Positions 2,355-18,841 of a stretch of 20,000 nucleotides of DNA are shown here, piece after piece. Both the position numbers and the translations under genes were made by a program. The stretch is from an uncultured virus (IMG/VR IMGVR_UViG_3300028805_000099) (taxonomy: Duplodnaviria > Heunggongvirae > Uroviricota > Caudoviricetes > Crassvirales). Position 1 is the stretch's first letter. Each line of letters starts with the position of its first letter. Location of the stretch: IMG/VR virus record IMGVR_UViG_3300028805_000099; one strand, 5' to 3'. The notes below the pieces were generated by a model, which made no database searches, was not told the origin of the DNA, and saw nothing but the letters and a program-made list of their open reading frames with translations.

Positions 2355-2510
2355 TTATTCTTCTTTTGGTAAGGTTTTCAATATAGACAGTACCGTACAA
2401 TCTTTTATTGCTGAATCATCTTGTATCCGTTTAACAATCCTAGCTTTAACGCCATACGGCAACCTTGCGCAAATGTCTTTTAATAAAAGTTGTTTTTCTT
2501 CTTGTGTCAT
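2355..2510 (-). CDS. Small (51 aa) hypothetical protein, possibly truncated; not in ORF track
   Basis: Manual translation MTQEEKQLLLKDICARLPYGVKARIVKRIQDDSAIKDCTVLSILKTLPKEE*; fills the gap between neighbours. Confidence 0.7.
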   Translation of the reverse strand: MTQEEKQLLLKDICARLPYGVKARIVKRIQDDSAIKDCTVLSILKTLPKEE

Positions 2511-2513
2511 GAT

Positions 2514-2747
2514 TTATGCAAATTTTACTACCTCACATAAATTATCATATGTTTCCCAATCCGTATCCAGAATTTCTTTTGGATTAGGGTTCGTCAGGTC
2601 TTCTGTTACACACAACCAATATCCGTCAAAGTCTTCACCTGTATTGCATAAGAAAAACTTGAACAGTACTTCTTTTTCTTCGCCGTTGATTTCAGTTCTT
2701 AAGATTGATTTTCCTGGTATTAATTTTCTAAATTCTTCTTGTGTCAT
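2514..2747 (-). CDS. Hypothetical protein
   Basis: 77 aa ORF starting MTQEE, abutting neighbours. Confidence 0.75.
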   Translation of the reverse strand: MTQEEFRKLIPGKSILRTEINGEEKEVLFKFFLCNTGEDFDGYWLCVTEDLTNPNPKEILDTDWETYDNLCEVVKFA

Positions 2748-2748
2748 A

Positions 2749-3921
2749 TTAAAGTTTTTTTAGGTCGTTGTAAAGTGATTCTAATGAAATTTGCTGCCTA
2801 CAAGTCATAGGGACGGTTTCAATGACATCTTTTAACCATTTCATCTGTTCCTCGCTTGGCTTCCAACTGTTATACTTTGCAGCAGAATAACCATCGTTAT
2901 AACCTTTATCATATAGACTTGATTGTGGCTTGAGCGATTTGAGCCAATACCCAAAATGCCTTTGTTTGTCAATCGTCGTGCATCTTGTTTCATAGTCACC
3001 TAAAAAGAAATCAAGTATTTCATTATAGATTCTTTCATCCTCTTCACTCCAATCTTTCTTATGTTGTGGTTGTACTTTGTCTTTTAGTGATTTGAGCCAA
3101 TCAATTTCTCTTTCATAAACAACTTGGTTGACTTCGTGATTATGAGCTTTCTGCGTAAATTGTATATCAGCAATAACAGCGTCAAACATTTCTTCATCCT
3201 CTTCACTCCAATAGGCGGATGGTTGTTCAATCTTAACAATATCTTTTTCGGCAGCAATTCCTATTGCTGTTTTTACTTCTTCTGGGTCAGATGGCTCACC
3301 AATTATAGATACATTATAAATGAAATTATTTCCACATTTTTCAATATTTTTGATTTTATAATTTTCACCTTTATATCTAATATAGTCCCCAGATATAAAT
3401 TTCGGCTTTACTTCATCAGTGACTTTCTGCTCACCTTGCTCTTCATTATCCTTTGGGCAATGTTGGTGTGTGAAAAGAGTGAACAATTGTTGAGGTGTGA
3501 TATGAAATCTTTGGTTCAAAATGTTATCACTTCTACCGATGTAAGTATCGTCTCCAACATATTCAAACCAATAAGACCCGAATTCTTTGAACTCATTAAA
3601 TGATTTTCTACACTCAATGAATTGACCACTGACAAAATCATTCTTTTCTTTTTCTGCCTCTTCAAAGTTTGCAGTATTTTGCTCACCTTGCTTTTCAAGC
3701 CAAGCAAGTATTTGTTCCCTTGTGAAACCATCAGCAGTAGGAAAATTACCTGAATGTTGATTAGTAAAGTTTCTAATGAGAGCTTTTCTTATTCTCTCAT
3801 CCTCTGATTCTTTGAGTTCTGGGAAGAGTTTTTCCAATATCTGAATTGCCAGGTTGTTATTGTTCTCTTTTGCAATTGCGAGCCATTCCTTTGCTGATTC
3901 TAAATCTTCTTCGTAATTCAT
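2749..3921 (-). CDS. Mosaic repeat-module hypothetical protein
   Basis: Start placed at ATG 3921 (ATGA overlap with upstream TGA). Modules KESEDERIRK, QGEQ x2, WSEEDE..WLKSLK x2, WKPSEEQM. Confidence 0.85.
   Translation of the reverse strand: MNYEEDLESAKEWLAIAKENNNNLAIQILEKLFPELKESEDERIRKALIRNFTNQHSGNFPTADGFTREQILAWLEKQGEQNTANFEEAEKEKNDFVSGQFIECRKSFNEFKEFGSYWFEYVGDDTYIGRSDNILNQRFHITPQQLFTLFTHQHCPKDNEEQGEQKVTDEVKPKFISGDYIRYKGENYKIKNIEKCGNNFIYNVSIIGEPSDPEEVKTAIGIAAEKDIVKIEQPSAYWSEEDEEMFDAVIADIQFTQKAHNHEVNQVVYEREIDWLKSLKDKVQPQHKKDWSEEDERIYNEILDFFLGDYETRCTTIDKQRHFGYWLKSLKPQSSLYDKGYNDGYSAAKYNSWKPSEEQMKWLKDVIETVPMTCRQQISLESLYNDLKKL
3034..3212. repeat. 20-bp exact direct repeat TTCATCCTCTTCACTCCAAT (3034-3053, 3193-3212)
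   Basis: Read directly; encodes WSEEDE. Companion 13-bp repeats at 2936-2948/3089-3101 and 3428-3440/3680-3692. Confidence 0.9.
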
Positions 3922-4295
3922 TTTATTTCTCCTTGTTCTAAAAGCCATACTATTGTTTTTATAGCTGATTCTATTAAAGTATTTTCTTCTTCTTTGTGGA
4001 GAGCATTTCCATTAAATGTCCACTGATCTATTAATGCGTATATAATTTGATTTCCAATAATAATTAAGGAATTCCAATTTAATGATTTTGGCATTAATTC
4101 AATCAATGTTCCAATACTCCAACAAGGAATAGCCTTTTTAGGTTGATTTATTCCTTCTTGTTTTACTTCTACATAATATTCAGTCTCTTGCCAATCTAAT
4201 GCAACCAACCACATATCAGCAGTATTTGGGTCTAATCCTGCTTTAATAAGTTTTTCAGACTGTTCAATTGTAGTATATCCTAATTGTTTTTTCAT
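3918..4295 (-). CDS. Conserved hypothetical Bacteroidales-phage protein
   Basis: 125 aa; TTIEQS.KL...G....TADM...PCWS...L.ELMP pattern. Confidence 0.8.
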   Translation of the reverse strand: MKKQLGYTTIEQSEKLIKAGLDPNTADMWLVALDWQETEYYVEVKQEGINQPKKAIPCWSIGTLIELMPKSLNWNSLIIIGNQIIYALIDQWTFNGNALHKEEENTLIESAIKTIVWLLEQGEIK

Positions 4296-4312
4296 AATTT
4301 AAATTCTAATTT

Positions 4313-4337
4313 AAAAAGCCCTCATATAGAGGGCTTT
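4313..4337 (-). terminator. Rho-independent terminator after the PNK gene
   Basis: Inverted repeat AAAGCCCTC-5 nt-GAGGGCTTT ending in a U5 run on the minus strand. Confidence 0.8.
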
Positions 4338-4341
4338 ATTA

Positions 4342-5244
4342 TTAAAAGTCACCATAATAGACTTGACAACATAAGATACCTAAATCTCTCCACATCTTCA
4401 CTACTTTATCCCTGTCATCAAATACACACGCTACATTGTATTTAGGTTGTATGTATTCAAAATACATTTCCTTCTTTACAATATCATCAGACCTAAAGTC
4501 TTTAGACTTTCTCATATAAAGTTGGTGTTCTCCAAAACCGTTGTCTTCCAACCACTTTTGAGTAACATCACGAGAATCTTCGCTTCTTCCTGAGAAGAAG
4601 ATTATCTTATAACATTGTGATAGACTGTTAAGAAAAGATTTCATTCTAGGGTCAAAAGTATCTTCTGATGCTTTATCATAATCAAATGGATTTCTGCCAT
4701 TATGTAATGCTATAGTACCATCTATATCACATAAAATTATACTTTCTTTATCTATACTAGGCAAAGTTATAGGTCTATCATCTGTATAATTATAAAGAAG
4801 TTCTGGAAAATAAGCTATAAAGAATTTTCTTATTATATTTTTTCCAACCTTGTCTTCTCTATTATTATCTCTTTCTATAGCTTCCTTATAAGAGATTTTA
4901 AATAACTTAAAGTCTATTTTAGAAGCAGCAATATCAGCAATTTTATTCCACTTTTCTATAGTCTTAGGATTAAGGTTAGTTGCATCTATAATAACATTCA
5001 AGTCAAGTTTCAATGCAGATAAAATTGCATTTTGTTCCAATTCATCTATATAATTTTCTTGGCTTGGTAGCCAATAGGTACCCCTAGCTTTATGCATAGA
5101 GTCCCTATTGACTATCACCCAATTGGTATGTTCAGTAGCCAGCTTTCTAGCAAAAGTGCTTTTACCAGATGCTGGCACTCCCTGTAAGACAAGAATTTGT
5201 CTCTTACCATTAATATCTAATTTTCCTAAATTAAATGTTTCCAT
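4342..5244 (-). CDS. pseT: Polynucleotide 5'-kinase/3'-phosphatase (T4 PseT-like)
   Basis: Walker A GVPASGKST, NRD, IIDATN; HAD motifs DIDGT, SGR, DDR; ends QVYYGDF. Confidence 0.93.
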   Translation of the reverse strand: METFNLGKLDINGKRQILVLQGVPASGKSTFARKLATEHTNWVIVNRDSMHKARGTYWLPSQENYIDELEQNAILSALKLDLNVIIDATNLNPKTIEKWNKIADIAASKIDFKLFKISYKEAIERDNNREDKVGKNIIRKFFIAYFPELLYNYTDDRPITLPSIDKESIILCDIDGTIALHNGRNPFDYDKASEDTFDPRMKSFLNSLSQCYKIIFFSGRSEDSRDVTQKWLEDNGFGEHQLYMRKSKDFRSDDIVKKEMYFEYIQPKYNVACVFDDRDKVVKMWRDLGILCCQVYYGDF

Positions 5245-6650
5245 TAGTTATTGTCTTCAATGTTTGCAATTCCTTTATCAAGTTCTTCACTTTCTTTTCC
5301 AAGAAATCTAAAGCTCTTAAGTTTAACTGCGTTAGGTGTCATATTATCTACTTTAATCACTATACCTTCATGAGGTACTTTATTCTTACAATCAGGAGAA
5401 TCAAGTTCCATATAGAAGTTCTTGTCATCTGCTAATTTGTCTATGAATGCATCATTCCAATTCTCAGAATCCTTAATATCTGGATAAAGGTCTGATGCTT
5501 TTCCATAATATAGTTCAACAACAGGCTCTAAACCATTGTTTTTACACCAATATTGTACTTCCTTTGGAGATAATTCAAATACTTTACCATCAGCGTTAGT
5601 AATGGTAATTCTGTATACCATTATCCTAAAATGCTTATTTATGGTATATTTCTCTCCTTCTTCAGGTGGTAAACATCCATAGTCGTAATCCTTTTGTATA
5701 TAACCCCCAGTAGGAAGGAATCCTATTATCTCATAATACAAACTATAACCTTTTGGAATTAATGAAATGAGGATTTTATTAGCTTCTCCCCATACATCGC
5801 AATTATAATATCCAGGACCTACAGACTTATTATAATATTTATTCTTTACAACAGTTCTTGAAGCATAGACATTATCATACCTATAGTTATTGTTTACATC
5901 TGCAATCTTATTTTCTTTATTAAACAAATTGTGAATTCTGCATACAATCTTATCTATCCAAGACTTAGGAAACTTACATATAACATTTGCAGAAATTGCA
6001 GATGTACCATGAAACTTACTACTAATATGAATAATATCATCTTTTTGGATTGCATAAGGATTCTTTCTTAGCTGCTCTGTGTCATAATGGAATCTAAACT
6101 GTCCTTCAACAAGTTTATCATATTTCTTTACGTTGGCCCTTTCTTTAGGTTCATTTGAACCATGAGTTCTTTGCTCAATTATGATATACTTCTTGTTAAT
6201 CCAAATCTCTTTACCATTATGTTCTACAGCATCAAACTCTTTATTTATACAAGATTCCTTGTCGTCAATTTTCTTATTTACAGAATCCATTAACCAGTTC
6301 TGAAGAACTTCAAAAGGCAATAAAAAACCTTCAGATACCATTCCCTTAAGTTTTATTGCCTTTACTCTTCCATTGTCTTCAAAGAATCCTGTTTTCTCTG
6401 GATTTGAGTTTAAGTTACCATGTCTATATAGATTTGCATAAGATAGTAAATTAGAATTAATTTGGCTAAGAGCAGGAAAATAAATATATACACCTTCCTT
6501 CTCATTAATGCCTACAATCATATTGTAACCATCTACTTTACATACCTTAAGCTTGGTTACTTCTGGATTAGGATGTGGAAAAAATTCCTTTATCTCAACA
6601 ACCTTCGCCAAGTAATTCGCACTGGCATTCTTTGTTTGGATTAATCTCAT
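5244..6650 (-). CDS. RNA ligase (Rnl2/DRB0094-like) with N-terminal OB-like domain
   Basis: Nucleotidyltransferase motifs KFHGTS, YYEIIG, EGIVIK, KLKS; N-terminus I...PHPN...L.V..V.G; TAATG-coupled to PNK. Confidence 0.85.
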   Translation of the reverse strand: MRLIQTKNASANYLAKVVEIKEFFPHPNPEVTKLKVCKVDGYNMIVGINEKEGVYIYFPALSQINSNLLSYANLYRHGNLNSNPEKTGFFEDNGRVKAIKLKGMVSEGFLLPFEVLQNWLMDSVNKKIDDKESCINKEFDAVEHNGKEIWINKKYIIIEQRTHGSNEPKERANVKKYDKLVEGQFRFHYDTEQLRKNPYAIQKDDIIHISSKFHGTSAISANVICKFPKSWIDKIVCRIHNLFNKENKIADVNNNYRYDNVYASRTVVKNKYYNKSVGPGYYNCDVWGEANKILISLIPKGYSLYYEIIGFLPTGGYIQKDYDYGCLPPEEGEKYTINKHFRIMVYRITITNADGKVFELSPKEVQYWCKNNGLEPVVELYYGKASDLYPDIKDSENWNDAFIDKLADDKNFYMELDSPDCKNKVPHEGIVIKVDNMTPNAVKLKSFRFLGKESEELDKGIANIEDNN

Positions 6651-6954
6651 TTTTGTATATGTTTATTTCTTTTACAAAATCTTCTACTGAGTTACATATA
6701 ATTACTTTTTCTCCTTGCTTAGCTATACTAATAATTTCTTCCTTTAATATTTTTATAGGAAGTGGGTTAAATCCTGCATTATGACCTACTCCAGCTCCAT
6801 GAATGTCAGTTGACATTCCATTAAAGTATAGCCAAGGATTATTTTCAAATTCAGTACAAATACAAAGATGGAAACCCAAATCCTTGAGTTTCCCCCTGAT
6901 TTCTTCACTATTATTACTTAAATAAATAGTCTTTGTTGGTTTAAAATAACTCAT
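6595..6954 (-). CDS. Hypothetical protein
   Basis: 119 aa, ATGA-coupled. Confidence 0.75.
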   Translation of the reverse strand: MSYFKPTKTIYLSNNSEEIRGKLKDLGFHLCICTEFENNPWLYFNGMSTDIHGAGVGHNAGFNPLPIKILKEEIISIAKQGEKVIICNSVEDFVKEINIYKNEINPNKECQCELLGEGC

Positions 6955-7247
6955 TGTTCTTTGAATTTAATTTTAAAACCTTCTTTTGTAGATTCAATAC
7001 TTTCTACTACATAACCTTCAGTGATTTTTGACCCTATTGAGATATAAGGACCTCCTGATGGATCTATAGCTGTGATATTGTTAAGGTTATAATGAAAAGT
7101 TACTCCTACTGCCATTAAAGCTTCTTCATCTCCTCTTAGATAATAGATATTGTTTTCTTTATGTTCTAAAAACACTTTACTTCCATATCTATTAAATAGA
7201 GGAATTTCATTCTCCCATTCTTTCGTCATAGTCTTTTGTTTCATCAA
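6951..7247 (-). CDS. Hypothetical protein
   Basis: 98 aa (start uncertain); IDPSGGPYI motif. Confidence 0.75.
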   Translation of the reverse strand: MMKQKTMTKEWENEIPLFNRYGSKVFLEHKENNIYYLRGDEEALMAVGVTFHYNLNNITAIDPSGGPYISIGSKITEGYVVESIESTKEGFKIKFKEQ

Positions 7248-7788
7248 TCCAAGAAATTGTTTGTACAGAGATTTTTGAAATTTCCAATAGACAGCTTTTT
7301 AATGTTTCATAATATTGGTCATCAGCCATATCTGAATAACAAGCTTTTTTGAAATTCTCAAAACCTCTTGTCAATTCTATCAGAGGATAATTCAATCCAA
7401 AGTCTTTTAATAACAAGTCAAAAGTAGTTAAATCTTCTTTAGAAAGCTCTTCAACTTTAGATAAGACTTCTTTTATTTTGTTGTCTTCCTCCTTATTATC
7501 CACTAATTCTTCCACATTTTTGTTTTGTGCATATACTCCAAAGCCCCTTACTACTGGAGAAGCAGAGGGGCTAAATTCAAAGTAATCCATACATATTGAT
7601 ATGTCAAGAGGATAAGTTTTGTCTGGATATCCTACTTCACAAACAATAACTCTTCCATCATTTACATTGACTACTTCATATTCAGTATCTACCTTAAAAG
7701 GTAACAATTCATATTCTCTGACACACTTAAGTCTGTGTCCAACTCTAAGTTCACTAAAATCCATATTAATTAAATTTAATGTATCCAA
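7207..7788 (-). CDS. Hypothetical protein
   Basis: 193 aa acidic ORF overlapping the polA stop. Confidence 0.8.
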   Translation of the reverse strand: MDTLNLINMDFSELRVGHRLKCVREYELLPFKVDTEYEVVNVNDGRVIVCEVGYPDKTYPLDISICMDYFEFSPSASPVVRGFGVYAQNKNVEELVDNKEEDNKIKEVLSKVEELSKEDLTTFDLLLKDFGLNYPLIELTRGFENFKKACYSDMADDQYYETLKSCLLEISKISVQTISWIDETKDYDERMGE

Positions 7789-9815
7789 TGGTCTCCAACA
7801 GATGCTTCTGCTGGAATAGGCAATTTATGGTAAAATTTAGCTGCTGCATCTTGCATTATTTTTGATACTATATTTGGATAAGTATCTTTCAATTCTTTTG
7901 GAAATTCAGTATTGATTTCATCATGAGTAAAATTACAAAACAATATTTTATTAAAATAATTGTTATCTATAACCCAGTTAAAAAGATTTATTATAGCTGT
8001 CTTAAGGACAATGGCTCCTCCACCTTGTGTTGGGCTGTTTAAAGCAGCTCTATCCCAAGAAGATGCAGCTTTAAAATGATTTTTAACCATTATAGCAACA
8101 TCATCATTTGTTCCTTTATGATTTAATTTATAATCTTCCCAAAATTCTGGAGTAAATGAAGCTTGTCTTTTTTTCCATTCCTCCCAATCCCACCAATATT
8201 GTTTATGCCCAGTATCTTTCATTATAAGGACATATCCTTTATTTCTTACTTCTTTGCTTCCTCTTATTTTAAAAGCCGCTAAACCTGTCATTCCACTAAG
8301 CAGATTTGTAACTAATGTTCTTGCTTCTTCAACAGGTATACCTAATTGAGGAGCTACAGCAGTACCATCCGAACCAAATTGAACAGCAAATTCAATACTC
8401 TTCACTTTATTTCTTAAATCAGGCCTTTTGCTTTTTACATCCTTAGTATCAATATCTTTTAGTTCTTCAGAAAACACAGCTTTAGCATAAGCAGCATGAG
8501 AGTCACCTGAGCCATAAATGAATTCATCAAGTAATTTCTTTTCATTATATACTTCGGCACCTATTCTTGCTTCCATAGCACTATAATCACAACTACAGAA
8601 TAAATTTCCCTTTTCTGCAACAAAACATGCTCTGGTTTCTTCATCATGTGGAAGTTGTTGCATATTAACCATTTTAACTTCCTTTAGTTTCTTATACTTT
8701 GCTAAATCAGTATCTTCACCTGAGCCTGATGACATTCTTCCAGTTGAAGTACCTATTTGCCAATAACTGGTATGAAGTCTTCCTGTAACAGGATTAATTA
8801 AGTTCAAATGACCTTGACCAAAAGAAGTAGTAAGTTTATAATATCCTTGATAATCAAAGTATAAACTTAAAAATTTATCATCTATTCCTTTTTGAGTTTT
8901 AAGGTTCTTCTCTTGCACAGAGTCAGCTTCTTTATTTGTAACTTTGCTAACTGCAACTAAATTGAATCCAAGAGCTTTAAATACTTGCTTTGCTTCATCT
9001 TTTTGCCAATCTATTCTAAACTTTGGTGTTGGGTCAAATTCAGCAAATAAATCAAGCTGATTATCTACATATACCCACTTTTGTAATTTAGGATTTGATA
9101 TACAATAGTCATTCAAAGCTTTCAAAGACTTATCAAGATTCTCTTTGTCTTTTTGCATCTTGGCTTTCCATTTTGTTTCATCTAATTTTATTCCACACCA
9201 TTCTAGATAAGCCATTGCAGGTACTACATCACACTCTAGTTTAGCTCCAACTAAACATTCTTTTTCTTTGCATTCTTTTATTTGAGATTGCATTATATCA
9301 TAAAGAGGAACTACATCATTTGCAGCATATCTTATTACACTTTCATCTAGGCCTCTCCATATAATTTGGCCTCTTATAGACTTATCTATATTTTTATTTA
9401 ATCTTCTTAAGGCTACTGCTTGAAGACTATAAGATATTTGTCCAGGAGGAAACCCTAAATGCAGTACTTGCTCTACAGTCATAGTATCATATACCTTTCT
9501 TGGTATAATACCATAATTATAAAGAAACTGTAAGTCAAATTTAAGATTATGTCCTATTATATATTTATTCTCTAACAATTCTTTATACTTTAAAGGAGAG
9601 ACAGTGGTAGTATCAACTACCACTTGGTCTCTACCTTCAGTATCTCCAAATTGAATACAAAGCAAATTGCAAAGATGAGGATTCTTTCCATCAGTTTCAG
9701 AATCAAATTGAACCATAAGCCACTTGCTTATTTTATCAATAGACTCTTCTACTGAGATATTTTTTATCCCATCTAATTCAAAAAGACTTTGTTGTCCAGA
9801 TACCAAATAAATCAT
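7776..9815 (-). CDS. polA: Family A DNA polymerase with 3'-5' exonuclease domain
   Basis: ExoI DSET, ExoII HNLKFD, ExoIII YAANDV; TGRMSS; motif A DYSAMEAR; motif B R..K...F...FG; motif C HDE. Confidence 0.96.
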   Translation of the reverse strand: MIYLVSGQQSLFELDGIKNISVEESIDKISKWLMVQFDSETDGKNPHLCNLLCIQFGDTEGRDQVVVDTTTVSPLKYKELLENKYIIGHNLKFDLQFLYNYGIIPRKVYDTMTVEQVLHLGFPPGQISYSLQAVALRRLNKNIDKSIRGQIIWRGLDESVIRYAANDVVPLYDIMQSQIKECKEKECLVGAKLECDVVPAMAYLEWCGIKLDETKWKAKMQKDKENLDKSLKALNDYCISNPKLQKWVYVDNQLDLFAEFDPTPKFRIDWQKDEAKQVFKALGFNLVAVSKVTNKEADSVQEKNLKTQKGIDDKFLSLYFDYQGYYKLTTSFGQGHLNLINPVTGRLHTSYWQIGTSTGRMSSGSGEDTDLAKYKKLKEVKMVNMQQLPHDEETRACFVAEKGNLFCSCDYSAMEARIGAEVYNEKKLLDEFIYGSGDSHAAYAKAVFSEELKDIDTKDVKSKRPDLRNKVKSIEFAVQFGSDGTAVAPQLGIPVEEARTLVTNLLSGMTGLAAFKIRGSKEVRNKGYVLIMKDTGHKQYWWDWEEWKKRQASFTPEFWEDYKLNHKGTNDDVAIMVKNHFKAASSWDRAALNSPTQGGGAIVLKTAIINLFNWVIDNNYFNKILFCNFTHDEINTEFPKELKDTYPNIVSKIMQDAAAKFYHKLPIPAEASVGDHWIH

Positions 9816-10327
9816 TTGTCCTTTTGTTTTGGTTTAAATACCATCATTTTATCGTAGTCTATAACATACTTACTTGCTTGAAGGAAATTATTTCCAAGCA
9901 ATCCGTGTATTTCAATACCACTTTCTTCCTCTATTTGAGAAAAAGCGTGTTTGAAGTTAGCCAAAGGAAGTTCTATTTCAGTTACAGTTGTAGGAGTTTC
10001 AAGTTTTACCTCACAATATTCCGTTATTTCTTGATTTCCCCCTAAGCCAGTAACAGATTCATTACAGTTTTGGAATTTACATCCTAACTCAATAGCTGTT
10101 TGGGCATCTATATAAGAAATAGTACTTCCTGTATCCAATAAAAAATTAAGTTCTTTTCCATTACAAGTGAAAGGCACATATATAAGTCCAGTTTTACTAA
10201 TCTTTGTCTTAAATTCAGTTATATCGTGATAGTTGTTTGTTTCTTTAAATCTTAGCTTTCTATAATAAAATATTGTAGCTAATTCACAAGTAATTAATAG
10301 AAGACATACTATTAATAAAACTATCAT
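9812..10327 (-). CDS. Retropepsin-like aspartic protease with N-terminal hydrophobic anchor
   Basis: FLLDTGST catalytic motif, GLLGNNFL C-terminal motif, hydrophobic [12 protein letters not shown]. Confidence 0.85.
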
Positions 10328-10516
10328 TTAACACCTGTGCTTCCAAATCCCCCATCACCTCTATCAGTTGACTGTAATTCACTCACTTCTTCAAACTCAG
10401 CTTTCTCCACCTTTGCAAACACCATTTGTGCAATTCTATCTCCATGATTTATAACGTAAGGCAGTGGAGAAGTATTATAAAGACATACTTTTATTTCGCC
10501 TCTATAATCTGCGTCT
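10324..10516 (-). CDS. dut: dUTPase exon 2
   Basis: Manual translation (I)[10 protein letters not shown]...GDRIAQMV...[12 protein letters not shown]: motifs III-V; missed by the ORF track. Confidence 0.95.
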
Positions 10517-10561
10517 CAATTTTATTATCGTATAAGTTCTTTATCTTATACTTCTACATCT

Positions 10562-11383
10562 TCATTTTGTTATACATGTAGTTTGGACTATATCTTCACT
10601 ATCATTATTGATAGGCAGGGCACTCGTGTCAACATTACTGTCCTCAGCATTATCTGTTAGGACTCGGTTGTTAGTCTCTGAACCCACGTAAATATTTCTA
10701 TAAACGCTTGGCTGCTGATTGTCCTCTTCAGGAGTTTCCAGCAATTCACCCTGTTTTACCACGACTTGACGCGTAATATCTAAATCTATAATTTGTTCAT
10801 AAAATTCTTTTTGTTCATTATTGCATAAGTCAAAAAACTATTCTCTTGATAATTTACCCGTATGCAATGCTGAAATTAATACATTTCCAAAAATTCTATG
10901 TATTAACATATGTGCATCTTTAGGAAGTAAAACTAAATTGTGTATATCATTGTTTGAATGATTTGCGTCTTTGTGGTGTATATGATAATTCTTTGGAAGA
11001 CTCTTTAAAGTTTCAAATCCAAAATATTCTTTTACAATATGTTTATGTAAATCTTTATCATTATCTTGAACACCGCATTCTTTTAATTTTTCTGCAACGC
11101 TTTTATAATTAGGATTACCTTTTCCAGTATTATTAATTGAACGCCATTTACTACTACAACTTGTATTACCACACGTTCTATGTTTATTTATATGGCTTTT
11201 CTTAACAAGATATTTCTTTCCACAAATTGGACATTCTAATTCAACTTTCTAATTATAACGCTTAGAATTATGTTTTCCTAAGCAGTTTCTACTACAACAT
11301 ACATATTTTTTAGCTCTACTTGGAAATACTAATTCGTGCTTTCCACATTCTGCACAAACAACTTCAACTAATTTACTTTGCAT
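10562..11383 (-). CDS. Intron-encoded Zn-finger/HNH homing endonuclease with two in-frame TAG codons (273 aa if read through)
   Basis: Manual translation: CAECGK..CCSRNC, CPICGK..CGNTSC, GKGNPNYK, IHHKDANHSNNDIHNLVLL...H...H. TAG at 11249-51 and 10838-40; no frameshift. Confidence 0.8.
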
Positions 11384-11417
11384 AATATACTTTATTTTAC
11401 AATAGATATTTACTGTG

Positions 11418-11449
11418 CAAAGATACAAATTATTTTAGATATTTACAAA
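11418..11449 (-). promoter_or_regulatory. Bacteroidetes primary-sigma promoter inside the dut intron
   Basis: TTTG (11449-46), 20-nt spacer, TATCTTTG (11425-18), matching the TTTG/TAnnTTTG consensus, about 35 nt upstream of ATG 11383. Confidence 0.75.
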
Positions 11450-11459
11450 TTTTTATTTA

Positions 11460-11719
11460 ATCGTGCCTGGAGTGTTAAGAACAGTTATTCCATGCTTTAC
11501 TGCCAATCCACTTCTTGGCCTTACTTGTCCTTCATATCCTACTGGTATTTCCATACTTATTCCAGTAGGAAATAACCAACGCTCATTAGGTTTAAGTATA
11601 ACACTTTGACACCCTTCTAAATAAGCATATAAATCTACTCCAGAACTCCCTTCTGTAGCATATTGAGGTACTTTACTGTCCTCATATAATTTCTTTATTT
11701 TAACTTTAATATCTTTCAT
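11460..11719 (-). CDS. dut: dUTPase exon 1
   Basis: Motifs I-II and start of III: SSGVDL, PRSGLA, LNTPGT(I). Confidence 0.95.
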
Positions 11720-12065
11720 AAAAATCTTCTAATCCTTTCTTATTTAAAATAAATAGTTTAGCATAAACGGTTGTTGTATTATCCTCTGGATTAAATTTGC
11801 TTGTAAGTTTAATATTGTCTCTAAATACCACATTTTTAGCAAGTTCATTATAAAGTGCATAATTAATATAGTCTCTTTGCCTAAACTCACTCTTAATTTG
11901 TCCAATATACTCACTCTCTGGTACTTTTATTGTACAAGATAATTTTGTAAAATTCCTTGGAGTGATATATACTGTTTTAGGTTCTAAATAAAAAGCAGTA
12001 TACCCAAATTTACAAGCTAACTTAAACAACCATTTGCTAAATTTATTGTTTGTTTTTAATTTCAT
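11706..12065 (-). CDS. Hypothetical protein
   Basis: 119 aa ORF overlapping both neighbours. Confidence 0.75.
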   Translation of the reverse strand: MKLKTNNKFSKWLFKLACKFGYTAFYLEPKTVYITPRNFTKLSCTIKVPESEYIGQIKSEFRQRDYINYALYNELAKNVVFRDNIKLTSKFNPEDNTTTVYAKLFILNKKGLEDFYERY

Positions 12066-12534
12066 TTTCCAACATTTCTATTTTATCATTAATATAGAAT
12101 ATTGCTTTTTTCAAATCTTCAATTGTCTTTTCCCCTTCAGTCATTGAAATATCTTTCTTATGTCCTGCTCTTAAGATATATTTCAATGTATTCCCCAAAT
12201 CAAAATCAAGATGCCTGCAAATATCAATAGGTTCTACACCACACAAATCTTTCAACCAAGTATAATGTGAAGGATGGTTTACATTATCTTTAATCTCAGA
12301 TTCTTCATTTGCACTTGAAAAATAAGTTATTTTATCTGGAACATCCTTATCTGTAAAATTATTTTTAACTGTTTCTTCAGTAAAATACTCAAGTACTCCT
12401 GCATCATTAACTATTGAGTATTTATATCCATCAGTATGTTCAAAGTCTTTACTTATTACCCTGTATAAATTCCCTTCAATAAATCTCGGTAATTTATTTG
12501 TTGTACATCTTACTACGGAATTCTCATCAATCAT
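12043..12534 (-). CDS. DUF3310 family protein (T7 gp1.7-like putative nucleotide kinase) with N-terminal extension
   Basis: VNHPSHY...E.ID...F.LGN.LKY..RAG.K...EDLKKA.FY signature. Confidence 0.85.
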   Translation of the reverse strand: MIDENSVVRCTTNKLPRFIEGNLYRVISKDFEHTDGYKYSIVNDAGVLEYFTEETVKNNFTDKDVPDKITYFSSANEESEIKDNVNHPSHYTWLKDLCGVEPIDICRHLDFDLGNTLKYILRAGHKKDISMTEGEKTIEDLKKAIFYINDKIEMLENEIKNKQ

Positions 12535-13027
12535 TATTATTTCCTTTCCAAAATTTATAAGTTATGTCTTCAAATTTAACTGGTTTTTTAGATATTTTCT
12601 TATACATTCTTTGATTTGTGGTCTTTTTGTTTAATGGCCCTAATGATTCTATATAGGGGCCAGTTTTAATATAATCAAACGAATTTGTTACTATTGGTCT
12701 GACAACAACATCCCCAAGACTATCTAAGCCAAAATACAATCCTGTATACCAAGCTGTCTTCAAACCAAATTTATGTACTGTAGTTGATAGTTCATATAAC
12801 TTCATTAAATCATTATCTCCTCCCATAAAACATACACAAGTAATTCCTTTGTTTTTGTCAATAAGCTCCTGCAACTTATCAACAGTAAGTTCTTCTCCTA
12901 CATCTTCCTGCAAATGTGGAGAATGGCATCCTTTACATCTATGATAACAATTACTAAGATTGATACATAAACTTATCTCATCGGGTACTTCGCTAAAAGT
13001 TACTTGAGTTTCTGTATATTTAATCAT
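12527..13027 (-). CDS. nrdG: Anaerobic ribonucleotide reductase activating protein (radical SAM)
   Basis: CYHRCKGCHS (CxxxCxxC), FMGGD, WYTG, KTGPY, TTNQR. Confidence 0.93.
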   Translation of the reverse strand: MIKYTETQVTFSEVPDEISLCINLSNCYHRCKGCHSPHLQEDVGEELTVDKLQELIDKNKGITCVCFMGGDNDLMKLYELSTTVHKFGLKTAWYTGLYFGLDSLGDVVVRPIVTNSFDYIKTGPYIESLGPLNKKTTNQRMYKKISKKPVKFEDITYKFWKGNNND

Positions 13028-13304
13028 AGTCTGAAATGTATTTTGAAGAGTTCAATTTAATTAACTTTCTTCTTTCACTTACTGTCATACCACACCACTT
13101 TTTGCAATGTTTAAGTGTTGTTTTTGAATAGTCATGATATCTTGTGAAGAAATAACCTTTTCCTTTAATAAATACACCTATTAAAGAGTTATAAGACATA
13201 CAAGTATTTCCATGTTCATAATAATCTATTTTATAGCTATTATTATAAGATGAGCTTGTAAACTTTCCTAAATTATTTAACAGGTCTTTAAGTTTAGTCT
13301 CCAT
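13020..13304 (-). CDS. Hypothetical basic protein between nrdD and nrdG
   Basis: 94 aa; SY....YSKTT.KH motif; overlaps the nrdG start. Confidence 0.75.
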   Translation of the reverse strand: METKLKDLLNNLGKFTSSSYNNSYKIDYYEHGNTCMSYNSLIGVFIKGKGYFFTRYHDYSKTTLKHCKKWCGMTVSERRKLIKLNSSKYISDYD

Positions 13305-13314
13305 AATATATAAT

Positions 13315-13342
13315 AAAAGCAGGAGTATTTCTACCCCTGCTT
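13315..13342 (-). terminator. Rho-independent terminator after nrdD
   Basis: GCAGGGGUA-GAAA-UACUCCUGC-UUUU on the minus strand. Confidence 0.8.
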
Positions 13343-13366
13343 GTTTGTTCCTTTTCTATATTTGAA

Positions 13367-14486
13367 TTAGAGTTTAATATCTTCTTCTTTGGTGTAGACT
13401 CTAGTCTTTTGTTCTATCTGTCTACCTTTTGACCAATTGTCTACGGCAGTAAGGTATCCAATTATTCGCGTCCAATACCTTATATTATTAGAGCCACATA
13501 TAGGACACTTATCTATTGGTGAATTTACTGTATGACCACAATCCTTACATTCACTCATTGGGATGTTGAAAGTAAAATAATTTGTGCCATTTGCTAATGC
13601 AAAATCCAGTATCTTAAGATATTGCTCCTTAGTCAAATGAGCATCCAAATTCACATGACAAGCTTGTCCTCCATCACTGAATTTGTTTATATCTCTTCCA
13701 TGAAGAGCTAGTTTATCTAACACTGATGTATTATCCCAAGGATTGTAAAAGTAACAGTTATATAGATTTTGGTCTTCTGGAACATAATAACCTTCCTTCT
13801 TATCTTTATCATAGAAACGAATGGCTGTTTGTTCTCCTGGAATACATTCACTATTGAATAAGAATGGTCTTTTCTTATCATTAATTGAATGTATCTTATT
13901 TTGTTCTTTGATAGTACCTAAAATAATAGATAAAAACTTCTTATATTCTTTATTGTTAGAAGTTTCTATTCCTAAAAACTTTGCTGCTTCAAAATATCCA
14001 ATTACTCCTATGGTACTATATAGTTTTTTCATATAGATATATCCTGCATTTGAAGCAGTAAACATTCCTTTGTCTTCATAATCATAAAGCATTGTTTTAA
14101 ATGCAATATGATATTTATATACTCTTTTAAGTATATTTATAAGATATTCTTTAAATCCTGACTGAGGAGCATAAAAAGTATGTAAATCAGCATAATCCGT
14201 TCCATTCATAGACTCTTTATACTCTTTACTCCAATCTTGAACAATTCTATTGATATTAAGAGTAATGACATTACAACTACCAGTCATAATACCAGTCATT
14301 CCTGTAGTTGAACTAAAAGTATTATCACTTATTTCATTCAAGACTCTACAACAACTTGCCAAAGACGATGGATTATCACTATTGTAGCAGAAGAAGCTTC
14401 CTCCTTTAGCCCATTCTTCAGCACATAACTCCTTATATTCCTTATCAAGGAATTCTTTGTTGTTATGTACCATTGCCATTGTTGTT
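13367..14486 (-). CDS. nrdD: Class III (anaerobic) ribonucleotide reductase, exon 2
   Basis: LASCCR, STIGVIG, IPGE, CxxC-CxxC Zn ribbon, glycyl radical TRIIGYL. Confidence 0.95.
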
Positions 14487-14639
14487 CATTTGTATTCCAC
14501 ATGAGTCGCTAATTCATATGCGTTCTCTTATGAACTGCTATATATTACTATATAGATTAGACTATATCACCTTCCATTTCTGGAAGCCTCCCATTTCCAC
14601 CCGCTTGAGTGTACTCCCTTTCGGGATAGTCGTTGAACC

Positions 14640-15188
14640 TTAGTTAATAAATTCCCATCTAAATCCAAAAGCTTTTCCATTTCTTTTTATTGCTCTACTT
14701 AAAGTAGATATGCTGCTATTTGTTTTTCCAAGATGTTTAACAGCTTCGTACATTGAAATGAAAATTTCTCCAGTGTCAATACATTTTACACCTTTTGAAT
14801 TTGATGGATGATGTTTGGAAGTATCATATAAACCTGTTTTAATAGCATGAATTGTGTTTTCCGAATATGTACACCATTCAAGATTTAAAACATTATTATT
14901 GCTTTTATTACCATCTATATGGTTTATACACGGTTTATTATCAGGATTTGGTATAAAAGTAATTGCAACTAGTCTATGAGCTTGGTATCTTTTCTTCACT
15001 CCATTTTTCATTAAAACAATTCTTTGGTAATTATCTTTTGTTGTTTCTGTTAAAAGATACTTTGCTGGATATTTCCTAGTACCATTGCTTTTATATTTAA
15101 TAATTCTTGGCAAACTTCTAAAATTTCCAAAATTACTTACTTGATAATAACCTTCATAAGAAGGAATGTCTTTCCAAATTTCATTCAT
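14640..15188 (-). CDS. Intron-encoded NUMOD4-HNH homing endonuclease (I-HmuI-like)
   Basis: EIWKDIP.YEG.YQVSN.G, HRLVA..F, INHIDGNKSNN...NLEW....N..HA; C-terminal NUMOD1-like domain; lies between Q and R (L6). Confidence 0.93.
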   Translation of the reverse strand: MNEIWKDIPSYEGYYQVSNFGNFRSLPRIIKYKSNGTRKYPAKYLLTETTKDNYQRIVLMKNGVKKRYQAHRLVAITFIPNPDNKPCINHIDGNKSNNNVLNLEWCTYSENTIHAIKTGLYDTSKHHPSNSKGVKCIDTGEIFISMYEAVKHLGKTNSSISTLSRAIKRNGKAFGFRWEFIN

Positions 15189-15212
15189 AACTCTTGGTTG
15201 CTAATTGTCCTG

Positions 15213-15244
15213 CAAAAATACAAAATTTTTCTTACATTTCCATA
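15213..15244 (-). promoter_or_regulatory. Putative Bacteroidetes promoter in the P5 region of the nrdD intron
   Basis: TATG (3/4 match to TTTG), 20-nt spacer, TATTTTTG (15220-13), 24 nt upstream of the HNH ATG. Confidence 0.6.
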
Positions 15245-15320
15245 CATTTGCATAGGATTTTTCAGCAGTTAAGGAGGTTTTCTTAATAAATTACTTTATT
15301 AAGCCGCAACTTTTATTTTT

Positions 15321-16438
15321 ACGGGAAACGTCAATGGCTTTATAAGCCTTAGTTCTCTATGTAATTCCATAAACATTCTTTGAAGAGTGTCAATGGCTTT
15401 CCATTCAGGTTGAGTACCATCAGGATAATAAAAGTCTCCAAATAATGCTTTGAAATATACTGAATCGTAGTAACTTACATTTGTGAATGGTGAATTATAA
15501 CTCCTATTACCAGCTGGCTGGTTCACCCCATATATGAACTGTTTCATTCCTTTACGAATGAAATATTTTACATCATGGTCTTTCTTTAAGTTTTTGGTTA
15601 CAATTTCATCCAATCTTTCATACCAATTCTCTCCGAATTCAGAAACTACATAATAATTAAGTGCAACAAAGTAATCTCCAAGAGCTACAGCACCTTTACA
15701 TTGGGAACTTAATAAAAATACAGCATTGGTAACTTGTCCACTGAAAGATTCAATATCGTTAGGAGCAGAAGGAGTGACTTTATCAAGATTGCCTACACCT
15801 TCAGTCATTAATGGATACAATGTAACTGCCTTACAATAATACTTAAGTACTGGAGAAGATGCTTCATCATGCACATAGATAATTCCATCTTTTAAATCTT
15901 GAGCATATTGGGAAGCTACCTCAGGAAACATCTTATTAAGTTGTTCCTTCATTCTATACCTTTGAATGGCCCTATTTGTTTGTTTATAGACTTCTCCTTC
16001 AAGATTGGCAACATTCTTTGTAGTTACATTGGAATTTGCGTCTGTTTCACTTGCAGAAGCTGCATTAGTGTCAGAATTACTATATTCATTCATATAGTCA
16101 ATTCTTTCTTTTAAGAATCTGACATTTTTATGCTCTGACCTATATAAGATATAGGCTTTTGCAGTTTTCTTAAGATTGAAATCCATTAATACATCTTCAA
16201 CACAATCTTGAATAAACTCAATTCCAACAGTATCTATATCAGTTGTAGGCTGCAATTTATTTGCTTTCTCTTCAATTTCACATTGTATCTCCTTAACAAG
16301 GTCATCTATGTCAAAACACTGTGTTTTCCATTGTGGTTCATTAACCTCGTTAAGGGCTTTTAAAAGTGCTGTTTTAATCTTCTCAATTTGATACTCTTGG
16401 ATAGTACCATCTCTTTTCTTTACTTTCTTAATCATCAT
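15321..16438 (-). CDS. nrdD: Class III ribonucleotide reductase, exon 1, with N-terminal ATP cone
   Basis: VKKRDG...IQD.VE..L...AKAYILYR ATP cone; IYVHD, YC, SPFTN, LTFPV. Confidence 0.95.
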
Positions 16439-16441
16439 ATG

Positions 16442-17464
16442 TTATTTATTTAACCATTCTATAATATCATTAGGCTCATCTAATTTTATTCCAATAGGGA
16501 CTCTTGGTTTTTCACTAAGATAATACCAAAGTTCAGTTGCAAGCTTTCTCCAATTAGGTAACTTGTATTCTCCATAATTACAATCTGTAACATCCTTAGT
16601 TCCTTTAAATTCCCAAACAAGAGGAGTTCTTGTACCATTACAAATTACTATGAACTGATAGTCTGCAATCTTGAAATCCTTAAAGTAATCATCCTTTTCA
16701 ATATTTTGCTTAATTAATTCATAGTAGAGCTGGGCCTGTATAGAGTAATTCCAAGCAATAAAGCTCTTATAAAACTGATGCTCAGGATGTCCTGATGTCT
16801 TAAGGTCATAAGGATAAATCACTTTATTCTCATAATCCGTAATTATCAAATCAGCCATGCAGCGCAAAGGAATACCATTATACTCTCCTTTAAATTTCAA
16901 CTGATAATAATGTTTGAGAGTGTCAGTATCTTCCCCAAACAACAATTTAGTATTAGGAGAAGTCTTTAATATTCTTACACAATCAAAAGCATCATTATAC
17001 TGTAACTGAGTAACAGGAGTCTTTCCATCTATTCTCTTTAGTTCATCATAATAAGGAGAACACTCTTTTATCTTCTTAACTCTTACATTATAGTACTTTG
17101 CATCAGTATAATATCCACAATTTACTGCTACATCTGAAAGTATTTGGTCAGGAATATCTTCTAAGCTATTATAAAATCCTTTATATATATCATATAAATT
17201 CTTTGTAATTTGTCTTAAGGTATCACTAAAACCAAAGTCTTGTACCAAAATAAATCTTTTGTTAAACTCTTCGATACTTCCAGTAAGTAAAGTATCTACC
17301 ATACTTCCAAAAACCAAAGAAGGAGTTTCTATCTTTTCAAATAATTTGTTTAACCCATCAAATCCTTCTCTTTCAAATCTGGATAGTGTAGAATATGAAA
17401 GTGCAGGGTCTGCCCTATATTCTTCTTCTGTAATGTTTAATGCTATATCTTTTAATTCTTTCAT
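16442..17464 (-). CDS. PD-(D/E)XK exonuclease (RecE/ExoVIII-like)
   Basis: LSYS.L, FGS.VD, ADLI...DLKT, Y..QAQLY. Confidence 0.8.
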   Translation of the reverse strand: MKELKDIALNITEEEYRADPALSYSTLSRFEREGFDGLNKLFEKIETPSLVFGSMVDTLLTGSIEEFNKRFILVQDFGFSDTLRQITKNLYDIYKGFYNSLEDIPDQILSDVAVNCGYYTDAKYYNVRVKKIKECSPYYDELKRIDGKTPVTQLQYNDAFDCVRILKTSPNTKLLFGEDTDTLKHYYQLKFKGEYNGIPLRCMADLIITDYENKVIYPYDLKTSGHPEHQFYKSFIAWNYSIQAQLYYELIKQNIEKDDYFKDFKIADYQFIVICNGTRTPLVWEFKGTKDVTDCNYGEYKLPNWRKLATELWYYLSEKPRVPIGIKLDEPNDIIEWLNK

Positions 17465-17718
17465 ATACTAAATTCTTCGTCACAAAAATCATTGATATAA
17501 CCATATCCAACATTAGTTTCTTCTTCAATATCAGGTAATGAATTAGCATTTGCATACTTTGCAACCATGTCGGATAGTTCTCTAACCTTGAGTTCAAAAG
17601 ACTCTACAATTTCCAATAGTCTTTCAAAATCTCTTTGTTCTATACACATTTGACAAATTTTTTTATCCTTCTCAGGCAGCAACTTAAGTTGCTTCTAAAT
17701 CTATTCAAGCATTTTCAT
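17461..17718 (-). CDS. Hypothetical protein, 85 aa if two in-frame TAGs are read through
   Basis: ATG AAA ATG CTT GAA TAG ATT TAG AAG CAA CTT AAG TTG... is in frame with track ORF 17461..17682; ATG 17718 overlaps the upstream TGA. Confidence 0.7.
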
Positions 17719-18197
17719 TCTGTATAATTTTTAATAATGTTAATAGCTTCAAGTGTTTCTTTCTTTGTTCTTACTACAAAATAGAAAGTTTTGGACATCT
17801 TCTCCAATAAGCTTACAAATAACTTTTTCTTTAATGGGAAAGTCTCATTAACTTTTCCTTTGGCTTCTATTATGACAGTAATGCCATTATAATCAAAGAT
17901 AAAATCTGGGGTATATTTTATATCTATGATTTTATCAGTTTCTTGATGAAAAGAACCTGATTCTGTTTTATTTTTCCTGTCATACACCTTAGATGTAGGT
18001 TTAAAGCCTTTCCACAATACAAAAGTTGTAGGTTCATATTTAGGATTCATTCCATTTTTTACTAGGGTTTCATATACCATTACTTCAAGCTTTGATTTGA
18101 AATGTATCCCATACTTTACTATCTTTGTAGCATTCTTTATTTTCTTATTTTCCTGCTTGTCCTCTTTTTTCTTCCTATTGTTTTTTCTAACTACCAT
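17715..18197 (-). CDS. PD-(D/E)XK endonuclease (T7 endonuclease I/DUF1064-like, possible resolvase)
   Basis: FKSKLE...YEP...YTPDF...IEAKG. Confidence 0.8.
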   Translation of the reverse strand: MVVRKNNRKKKEDKQENKKIKNATKIVKYGIHFKSKLEVMVYETLVKNGMNPKYEPTTFVLWKGFKPTSKVYDRKNKTESGSFHQETDKIIDIKYTPDFIFDYNGITVIIEAKGKVNETFPLKKKLFVSLLEKMSKTFYFVVRTKKETLEAINIIKNYTE

Positions 18198-18829
18198 ATT
18201 AATTCAAAATTTCTATAGTCTTTAAGAATTGTTTCAGTCTCCCTAAACACTTTATCAGGCATATCAACATTATTTCTTGCATACCAAGAAGGATGCTTTT
18301 CTTTTAATATAAAGTTTCCTTCTTTATAAATTACATTCTCAAATGATTGAGCATCATTACCTAAGAGAATGAAAACCAATGCTCTGTCACTGATGGAGAC
18401 CTTATGCAAGAGTGAACTTACAAAAGGTCTCCATATCCAGCTATGAACTCCAGTCTTTCCTACCATAGTAGTTAGACTAGCATTTAATGGTAATATACCT
18501 TGATTACACCAATTAACTAAATCATAAGGAGGTTTACACTCTTTTCTAGTACTCTTTAATAGTACTTTAAGTGAAGGAGATACTTGTTTCACATCGTTAT
18601 TATTAGCAAATGCTATCCCAGTGGAAACTCCTCTTTGCGGATAGGGGTCTAATCCTAACAGAATAACCTTCAAATTATTATAATCACATAGATTAAATGC
18701 TTTGAAGATATTCTTATAGGAAGGACACAAATCCCTGATATTCAGTCTTTTTATTTCATCAAGTGCTTTATGCAAGAGATTGAAGTCAATTACCTTAGAC
18801 CAGTTGCAAAAATACTCAATCTCTGTCAT
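18191..18829 (-). CDS. ung: Uracil-DNA glycosylase (family 1)
   Basis: KVILLGLDPYP, G.AF, SPSL, W..QGI..LN..LT, LLG..A, HPS. Confidence 0.92.
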   Translation of the reverse strand: MTEIEYFCNWSKVIDFNLLHKALDEIKRLNIRDLCPSYKNIFKAFNLCDYNNLKVILLGLDPYPQRGVSTGIAFANNNDVKQVSPSLKVLLKSTRKECKPPYDLVNWCNQGILPLNASLTTMVGKTGVHSWIWRPFVSSLLHKVSISDRALVFILLGNDAQSFENVIYKEGNFILKEKHPSWYARNNVDMPDKVFRETETILKDYRNFELIW

Positions 18830-18841
18830 TGGAAATTTAAA

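Follow-up and report, generated by a model that had tools for sequence, protein, structure and literature searches.

The question raised by the locus described here is how to understand a reading frame which retains all the invariant positions of a homing endonuclease family and is nevertheless interrupted twice by an in-frame TAG codon: as the remnant of a decayed gene, as a gene for a short standard-code peptide, or as an intact gene written in a code that the phage would use at a late stage of the infection. The locus occurs in the DNA of an uncultured crAss-like phage (IMG/VR record IMGVR_UViG_3300028805_000099; Caudoviricetes, Crassvirales), of which a stretch of 20,000 nucleotides has been analysed; this whole stretch is referred to as the window, and all coordinates given without any further label are window coordinates. 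The interrupted frame is a homing endonuclease gene (HEG) of the HNH type, located inside dut, the gene encoding the dUTPase. A first-pass annotation, made from the letters of the sequence, had proposed that read-through of the two amber codons may serve as a timing switch for the nuclease. The analysis presented here makes it probable that the frame is an intact HEG borne by a mobile group I intron of dut, and that its two TAGs are sense codons, most likely for Gln, of the late code of the phage.

The endonuclease frame and the group I intron of dut

The HEG frame extends on the minus strand from ATG 11383-11381 to TGA 10564-10562 and comprises 273 codons, among which TAG codons 45 and 182 are the only internal stops, TAA codons, TGA codons and frameshifts being totally absent. 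This continuity had been recognized by the first-pass annotation together with two Cys-rich repeats, a GNPNYK motif and an HNH motif, and this part of its description is borne out, for the motifs by a Pfam match and by conserved columns. With TAG read as sense, the product matches the Pfam family HNH_3 (PF13392) over residues 129-159 (E 3.3e-8, 33.5 bits against a cut-off of 24.8), as well as HNH endonuclease families of PHROG, and 111 homologues at E<=1e-3 were found among 212 candidates from a large protein collection. Because of these 111 homologues, and because the longest spurious frames created elsewhere in the window by reading through TAG attain only 81-111 amino acids (aa), the HEG frame lies beyond what chance would produce. 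In the family alignment, which consists of 33 sequences (the window HEG and 32 homologues), the Cys residues of the first repeat (C10, C13, C29, C30, C34) and of the second one (C51, C54, C71, C76), the G87-N90-Y93 motif, and the HNH residues H136, H137, N149, H158 and H162 all occupy invariant or near-invariant columns, and each of the 22 invariant columns of the family is retained in the window HEG (22/22). A database protein, P0001, which is 99% identical and also 273 aa long, displays Q at both TAG sites, encoded by either TAG or CAG; an exact pattern around codon 45, with that codon left open, gave no match among metagenome contigs.

When the standard code (code 11) is applied, all that remains of the region is fragments of 59 and 66 aa, and translation from ATG 11383 gives a peptide of 44 aa devoid of the nuclease domain, exactly as anticipated. 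Since this peptide holds one complete Cys-rich repeat, it might conceivably work by itself as a single Zn-finger protein, e.g., a DNA- or RNA-binding regulator, unless the functional product were a fragment made by re-initiation. Such a use of the standard-code products is scarcely credible: no ATG, GTG or TTG start occurs in codons 46-159 (among open reading frames, ORFs, of at least 40 aa), the conservation of the family continues across both TAG positions, and nothing was found that supports a function of the peptide.

The predicted fold of the complete HEG product consists of a block covering residues 1-210, with values of the predicted local distance difference test (pLDDT) mostly between 80 and 92, followed by a tail of about 65 residues with values of 27-56. 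The last ~65 codons overlap the core of the group I ribozyme, which thus encodes the tail (VVKQGELLE…DNQQPS…DTSALP); owing to this overlap and to its poor folding, the conservation of the tail as a protein is to be read mainly as conservation of the RNA. Solved structures compared by sequence with the profile of the HEG family gave a best E of 0.15, and a Foldseek search with the whole HEG model against the PDB returned no match at E<=0.001 (best E 0.2), the weak top rows being HNH domains and zinc fingers.

The first-pass annotation had taken dut for an interrupted gene, and this is confirmed both by the Pfam dUTPase profile, which is split between two exons, and by the existence of an intron-less allele. 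The latter is found in G002, a viral contig of 72,385 bp (CheckV completeness of 56%) which shares ~91% nucleotide identity with the window over positions 4335-20000 and 96% aa identity in the family A DNA polymerase (PolA). In G002, dut is uninterrupted, the segment that corresponds to window 10448-11460 being 69 bp long, and the alignment of exon 1 ends at 11460; present in the window and absent from G002, the intron thus shows a presence/absence polymorphism. Exon 1 ends in …CACGAU and the intron in …AAAAUUG, and the frame of the dut exon reaches a TAA two codons inside the intron. Once joined, exon 1 and exon 2 encode a dUTPase of 150 aa, which is collinear with the dUTPase of G002 (128/150 identical residues, no gap). 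The core of the ribozyme matches the Rfam model RF00028 with 59.5 bits for a gathering score of 50 (E 3.7e-14); a gathering scan of the whole window with the fast filters of Rfam overlooked it.

The guide sequence GUCGUG is complementary to the exon end CACGAU, with a terminal U-G pair. Moreover, guide and exon hexamer co-vary: over 7 loci displaying 5 different exon hexamers, all pairs are fully complementary with a terminal U-G, the other P1 pairs (exon/guide) being AACGAU/GUCGUU, GACGAU/GUCGUC, AACCUU/GAGGUU and AACGGU/GCCGUU. The HEG ORF starts 76 nt past the 5' splice site, so that its first ~205 codons sit in the P1 loop, and it stops 45 nt short of the 3' splice site; both the guide sequence and the entire catalytic core are consequently comprised within the ORF. 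All of the intron-borne relatives inspected (7/7) occur at the same dUTPase motif, ..GT[IFV]|D. The HEG family is also encountered in the large phage contigs L006 (344,580 bp), L009 (392,823 bp) and L010 (207,929 bp); in L006 and L009, the HEG is located at this same motif of the dUTPase superfamily, with a guide adapted to each exon.

A hint that the dut intron is spliced in vivo is given by the RNA library X15, a single contig of which (depth 9) matches exon 2 over 165 nt with 0 differences, joins position 10516 to position 11460, and continues 28 nt beyond, thereby skipping 943 nt at exactly the predicted junction. DNA carry-over and an intron-less allele are alternative sources of this joint. 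No spliced joint was seen in the DNA runs X3, X4 and X8, which come from other studies and in which the intron is present. Sequencing runs were compared as contigs and not as reads, the lack of RNA cover in X15 is uninformative, and the RNA runs X16-X20, with <0.1 of the sampled words, were excluded. The coordinates of all these elements are collected in Table 1.

Table 1. The dut intron, its endonuclease frame and other features discussed in the text (window coordinates, unless a contig is named).
Feature	Coordinates	Strand	Evidence or remark
dUTPase (dut) exon 1, 260 nt, ends in U	11460..11719	-	Pfam dUTPase profile 3-64 of 129
Group I intron, 943 nt, last base G	10517..11459	-	G002 allele, Rfam, RNA-library junction
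dut exon 2, including the stop codon	10324..10516	-	Pfam dUTPase profile 69-129 of 129
HNH homing-endonuclease ORF, 273 codons + TGA, TAG read as sense	10562..11383	-	HNH_3, homologues, PHROG, fold
In-frame TAG, codon 45	11249..11251	-	linker between the two Zn-finger-like repeats
In-frame TAG, codon 182	10838..10840	-	follows the HNH motif and precedes the conserved C-terminal helices; 73 nt ahead of the guide
Ribozyme core, wholly within the HEG ORF	10572..10811	-	Rfam RF00028 Intron_gpI
Internal guide sequence GUCGUG, 3' strand of P1	10760..10765	-	inside the ORF (codons Q-V-V), just upstream of P3
Bacteroidetes-type promoter-like motif TTTG-N20-TATCTTTG	11418..11449	-	pattern match, 35 nt upstream of ATG
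HNH/NUMOD4 endonuclease ORF in the nrdD insertion	14640-15188	-	no TAG
GIY-YIG ORF overlapping a group I intron	G002 65336-66127 (L100 5336-6127)	-	codon 6 is TAG and precedes the GIY motif
LAGLIDADG intron ORF	G002 63238-64056		no TAG

Probable sense reading of stop codons in the lineage and in the endonuclease family

The late genes of the lineage are apparently written with TAG as a sense codon. In the region 1-31956 of G002, code 11 leaves the plus strand without any long ORF and the minus strand with only four, of 217-359 aa, all of them terminated by TAG. When TAG is taken as sense, the same region accommodates ORFs of 1574, 1157, 632, 2406, 3419 and 1390 aa, which contain 33, 33, 23, 69, 65 and 30 TAG codons, respectively, and one of which encodes a virion structural protein. 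These six late ORFs total 253 TAG in 10,578 codons, and TAG represents 46% (253/552) of their TAG, CAA and CAG codons. Comparing coding density under codes 11 and 15, a check suggested by the first-pass annotation, thus reveals a strong code-15 signal in the structural block of G002 and a replication block (32-72 kb) free of TAG, with the exception of a single ORF of at least 150 aa, which encodes a GIY-YIG intron endonuclease. Similarly, the 25 other ORFs of the window (>=80 aa) contain 0 TAG in 5,707 codons, compared to 2 in the 273 codons of the HEG, and end in TAA (13), TGA (11) or TAG (1). The sole ORF of the 25 that ends in TAG is located at 18191-18829 on the minus strand; read-through adds 18 codons and creates an overlap with the next gene, and the G002 counterpart ends in TAA.

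Concerning the residue for which TAG stands, Q is the commonest one opposite TAG when the late proteins of G002 are aligned with standard-code relatives (18/129 aligned sites, in alignments that are 22-44% identical), and TAG in the late genes of the lineage most likely means Gln. To judge from their sequences, recoding is patchy among the relatives, since G003 and G004 (PolA 69% identical) use the standard code and the more distant G005 (PolA 55%) is TAG-recoded.

The HEG family itself is distributed over phages that use three different codes. The TGA-recoded loci L003, L004, L005 and L008, called by an ORF cover that rises from 0.26-0.65 to 0.68-0.90 under code 4, possess HEG copies with in-frame TGA: in L003 and L004, the TGA occupies the column of W80, where 30 of the 33 sequences have W, in L005 it falls in a column of I, Y or W, and the copy of L008 has two in-frame TGA. 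In these loci the neighbouring genes are TGA-bearing as well, and the HEG is not special in this respect. In L176 (2052-3086), a HEG copy which is 35% identical contains 7 in-frame TAG in 344 codons; three of the five aligned TAG are located on columns with Q in 25-26 of the 32 homologues, one TAG replaces the Gln codon within the conserved P3 sequence (VLK#GE), and one occurs in the same alignment column as window codon 45. The HEG of L179 contains 1 TAG, opposite Q in L177. Both in L176 and in L179, the HEG is far richer in TAG than its neighbours, three out of four of which have no internal TAG, one ORF of 201 aa in L176 keeping a single one. Finally, no internal stop occurs in the endonuclease body of the standard-code loci L006/L171, L007/L166, L167, L009, L010/L170, L011/L173 and L159/L160, nor in the further standard-code loci L162, L163, L164, L168, L169, L177 and L178, nor in the partial copies L172 and L174, nor in L175.

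Varied stops and frameshifts among close relatives, which the first-pass annotation regarded as the signature of ordinary decay, are thus not what the family shows: the stops match the resident code, and a single locus, L165 (4001-4793), which has standard-code flanks, is frameshifted. Its frame is lost after about 53 codons, by ordinary decay or by an assembly error, and it suggests that ordinary decay does occur in the family, but looks different. The occurrence of one HEG family in three codes, with stops that follow the code of the resident phage, amounts to a natural experiment, read from sequence comparison, which supports TAG as Gln and TGA as Trp and speaks against a pseudogene.

The residues found at the two TAG positions in the 32 homologues are less uniform. 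The column of codon 45 contains K 19, Q 5, E 4, T 2, M 1 and one gap, and that of codon 182 contains Q 8, L 7, T 4, E 4, I 3, V 3, M 1, F 1 and D 1, with Gln in the closest homologues and a true Gln codon in L003, L004 and L008. The first-pass annotation had asked whether aligned homologues would show Gln or other sense residues at these sites: Gln is indeed what the closest homologues offer at codon 182, but codon 45 faces the sense residues K, Q and E, mostly Lys.

Strain variation provides another view of the same question. Compared with contigs assembled from the DNA runs of three other studies, the HEG ORF differs at at least 10 sites. Among the differences listed, six of the seven situated in codons 1-181 are synonymous, including all three (3/3) of those between the two TAGs; the three situated after codon 182 all change the residue, two of them in the RNA-constrained tail, and none affects either TAG. 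Both TAGs are also unchanged between the window and L001.

These results bear directly on the possibility that the HEG has decayed by two nonsense mutations after fixation of the intron, with the ribozyme as the only functional part. Homing endonuclease genes usually end in this way, not all members of the lineage possess the intron, L165 offers a frameshifted example amid standard-code flanks, and a Lys codon AAG at codon 45 would need a single step to become TAG. Decay appears improbable, however, inasmuch as both stops are TAG, the sole codon that the lineage reads as sense, no other defect exists in 273 codons, the strain differences upstream of codon 182 are predominantly synonymous, the TAGs persist unchanged in the window, in L001 and, among the differences listed, in the three other runs, and the stops of the other family copies match the code of their phages. 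Taken as sense codons of the late code, most likely Gln, the two TAGs agree with the code-15 block of G002, the TAG-free early ORFs, the code-matched stops of the family and the synonymous strain differences, and it is because of these four lines of evidence that this reading is preferred to decay.

Proposed timing of translation, splicing and homing

If TAG is decoded as Gln in the late phase, the full endonuclease is probably made only late in infection. As long as TAG acts as a stop, ribosomes starting at ATG 11383 would stop at codon 45, about 480 nt short of the guide, and release the peptide of 44 aa. Early in infection, the guide and the core would therefore be free of ribosomes, the intron would fold and splice, and the dUTPase would be made. 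With an active amber suppressor of the phage, both TAGs would be read, the full Zn-finger/HNH protein would be produced, and the ribosomes would traverse the guide and the core. Translation into a group I intron reportedly disturbs splicing. Since the ORF runs through the guide and the catalytic core, both TAGs would keep the ribosomes off the ribozyme in the early phase, and this role may be new. As regards the timing switch put forward by the first-pass annotation, the recoding of the lineage and the reading of the TAGs as sense codons have thus found support; decoding restricted to the late phase and a switch favoured by selection belong, together with the residue inserted, to what we infer.

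A second intron endonuclease of the lineage presents the same feature. Two further group I introns were identified in the early block of G002, one with the LAGLIDADG ORF and a neighbouring one with the GIY-YIG ORF, and the latter ORF is, from its sequence, a second case. Altogether, two of the four intron endonucleases found in the early blocks of the lineage carry TAG, and nothing else there does so (in the window, and among the ORFs of at least 150 aa in G002). The HNH/NUMOD4 ORF of the window lies in a second insertion, at about 14470-15321, which splits nrdD and is absent from G002; this insertion gives a weak group I match of 33 bits at 14538-14711, below the gathering score of 50.

Several observations weigh against a late code that gates the endonuclease. 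The TAG code of the window's own phage is deduced from a relative which is ~91% identical. No suppressor tRNA was detected in the window, and the 72 kb of G002 (56% complete) contain only a tRNA-Met and no tRNA-CUA. The column of codon 45, with Lys in 19 of 32 homologues, one step away from TAG, fits a nonsense mutation as well as it fits Gln. The absence of any change at the TAGs in other strains refers to a comparison at the contig level and to the limited set of differences listed. Two of the four intron endonucleases, namely the HNH enzyme of nrdD and the LAGLIDADG enzyme of G002, are devoid of TAG. Finally, in the standard-code copies of the family, the frame crosses the ribozyme core uninterrupted by any stop, and a gate is accordingly not needed there.

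The search for a tRNA-CUA suggested by the first-pass annotation was thus unsuccessful for this lineage, and the only tRNA-CUA found is that of G005, a contig with 20 tRNA matches. The tRNA-CUA of G005 has the same length as phage tRNA-Gln genes and a similar D-arm, an alignment which says nothing on its identity. An exact search with the tRNA-Met gene of G002 returned only G002 itself. In G004, a complete standard-code relative of 104 kb, about 25 tRNA genes are clustered at 66.8-69.5 kb, without any tRNA-CUA.

Part of these observations would also be explained if TAG does mean Gln and the endonuclease is produced, the TAGs themselves being neutral, either because they drifted in under late expression or because the intron was acquired from a TAG-recoded phage, late-only translation being then a mere by-product. 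Neutral TAGs are a distinct, though rather unlikely, possibility. They would account for the low density of TAG, which represents 2 of the 11 Gln-type codons of the window HEG compared to 46% in the late genes, for the two intron endonucleases without TAG, for the ungated relatives in standard-code phages, and for the TGA found in the neighbours of the TGA-recoded copies. They hardly explain why the HEG is the only ORF with internal TAG in the 20-kb window and the GIY-YIG ORF the only one (>=150 aa) in the 40-kb early block of G002, nor why L176 has a TAG in the column of codon 45 at only 35% identity. In addition, the intron endonuclease family of Agate phages prefers the recoded codon (p = 1.32e-3), according to the portion consulted of the preprint by Borges et al. 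(bioRxiv 10.1101/2021.08.26.457843).

A stronger form of the gating proposal starts from the fact that, with the guide and the whole core inside the ORF, a translating ribosome and the ribozyme cannot share one molecule. The two TAGs would then act as a toggle, operated by the code, through which one RNA serves either splicing or homing: in the early phase, ribosomes would stop at codon 45 or, failing that, at codon 182, which precedes the guide by 73 nt, and the ribozyme would stay free; the suppressor, once present, would allow the endonuclease to be made and at the same time shut down the splicing of new dut transcripts. This toggle is a speculative idea, about which we are doubtful. If it were true, the TAG located in the same linker column of the distant L176 copy would represent a convergent placement of the gate.

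Surroundings of the intron and related phage systems

All the genes of the window are on the minus strand and form a block of phage replication and nucleotide metabolism, which includes a family A DNA polymerase, an aspartyl protease, the dUTPase, a radical-SAM protein and an anaerobic ribonucleotide reductase. The best named matches of PolA are crAss-like phages (Kolpuevirus 41.8%, crAss001 34.6%). The public sequencing runs in which the stretch occurs are metagenomes from the gut of sheep and cattle, and no DNA nearly identical to the window occurs in the collection of named phages. Window positions 1-4335 have almost no counterpart in G002, with a match of 66 bp only. This lack of counterpart, together with a divergence from L001 confined to 4283-5782, suggests that a recombination-prone boundary exists near these positions. 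The 1,500/1,500 identical bases around the intron in the window and L001 had been considered as a trace of recent homing; this was rejected, since all 132 differences between the two fall in 4283-5782 and the remaining 8.8 kb are identical.

Upstream of the HEG, the first-pass annotation had recognized a promoter of consensus host type. What stands of this claim is one match to the pattern TTTG-N20-TAnnTTTG, which we take to be the -33/-7 promoter type of Bacteroidetes; it is a motif only, and a sigma-70 scan near the HEG start reaches no more than 9 of 12. The pattern has 5 matches in the window for 1.69 expected, a number reached by 3 of 200 shuffles, and the match at 11449-11418 is the only one on the coding strand outside a gene. 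Among 9 loci inspected, L005 and L008 show the strict pattern ahead of their HEG start as well, and L003 shows a near match. The motif may be a promoter, or merely a conserved sequence of the intron. A structure resembling a terminator is flagged on the minus strand at 11259-11284, where a hairpin of 9 bp precedes a T-rich run with the TAG of codon 45 at its end; terminator-like sites number 2 in a 1.8-kb scan for 0.5 expected, possibly by chance.

Intron endonucleases whose synthesis is delayed are familiar from phage T4, where late promoters and RNA structures hiding the ribosome-binding site are involved, and where the expression of I-TevI, I-TevII and I-TevIII is reportedly postponed. As in T4, the group I intron occurs here in a gene of nucleotide metabolism, and the endonuclease is proposed to be kept from the early phase, sparing the splicing of the host gene; the barrier proposed here, in contrast to that of T4, is the genetic code itself. 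I-HmuI of the Bacillus phage SPO1, which is presumably an intron endonuclease of the HNH_3 type, shares with the window HEG the HNH motif in an intron-encoded phage endonuclease, whereas the tandem CxxC...CCxxxC repeats at the N-terminus and the helices at the C-terminus set the family of the window HEG apart.

The closest parallel concerns the Agate phages. In the parts of their preprint at hand, Borges et al. (bioRxiv 10.1101/2021.08.26.457843) describe a group I intron endonuclease located in an early gene and preferring TGA, and point out that in-frame stops should block the production of the endonuclease until late. Common to both systems is a HEG carried by an intron of the self-splicing group I type, within an early gene that follows the standard code, and containing the stop that the phage reassigns late. 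As far as the consulted parts of the preprint go, the present case differs in its codon, TAG (Gln) instead of TGA (Trp), in its crAss-like phage, in its host gene, dut, and in the number of recoded codons, which are only two; furthermore, the ORF covers the guide and the whole core, which adds an aspect of competition between ribosome and splicing. For crAss-like phages, the sections available of Yutin et al. 2021 (PMC7886860) report that TAG is reassigned to Gln or TGA to Trp, chiefly in late genes, that group I introns are numerous, and that recoded stops occur in intron and intein ORFs, all of which recalls the situation of the window. In the examples given there, namely TerL containing inteins and PolB containing introns, recoding extends to the host gene, whereas here dut and its neighbours are free of TAG and the intron ORF alone bears it. 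Full-text searches returned Borges, Yutin and reviews only, and gave no description of the present dut intron family.

Code-gating of an intron endonuclease has accordingly already been proposed in print for the TGA of Agate phages, and the window HEG is a further case, to which the present analysis adds code-matched stops across three codes, the anatomy of the intron, the junction in an RNA library, and a natural intron-less target allele. From a practical point of view, annotation under code 11 miscalls such intron genes as broken, even in regions which look standard. The overlap of ORF and ribozyme provides a concrete reason why gating could matter, and the locus as a whole offers an independent case, with another codon, another phage group and another host gene than in Agate, for the reassignment of stop codons as a clock of phage gene expression.

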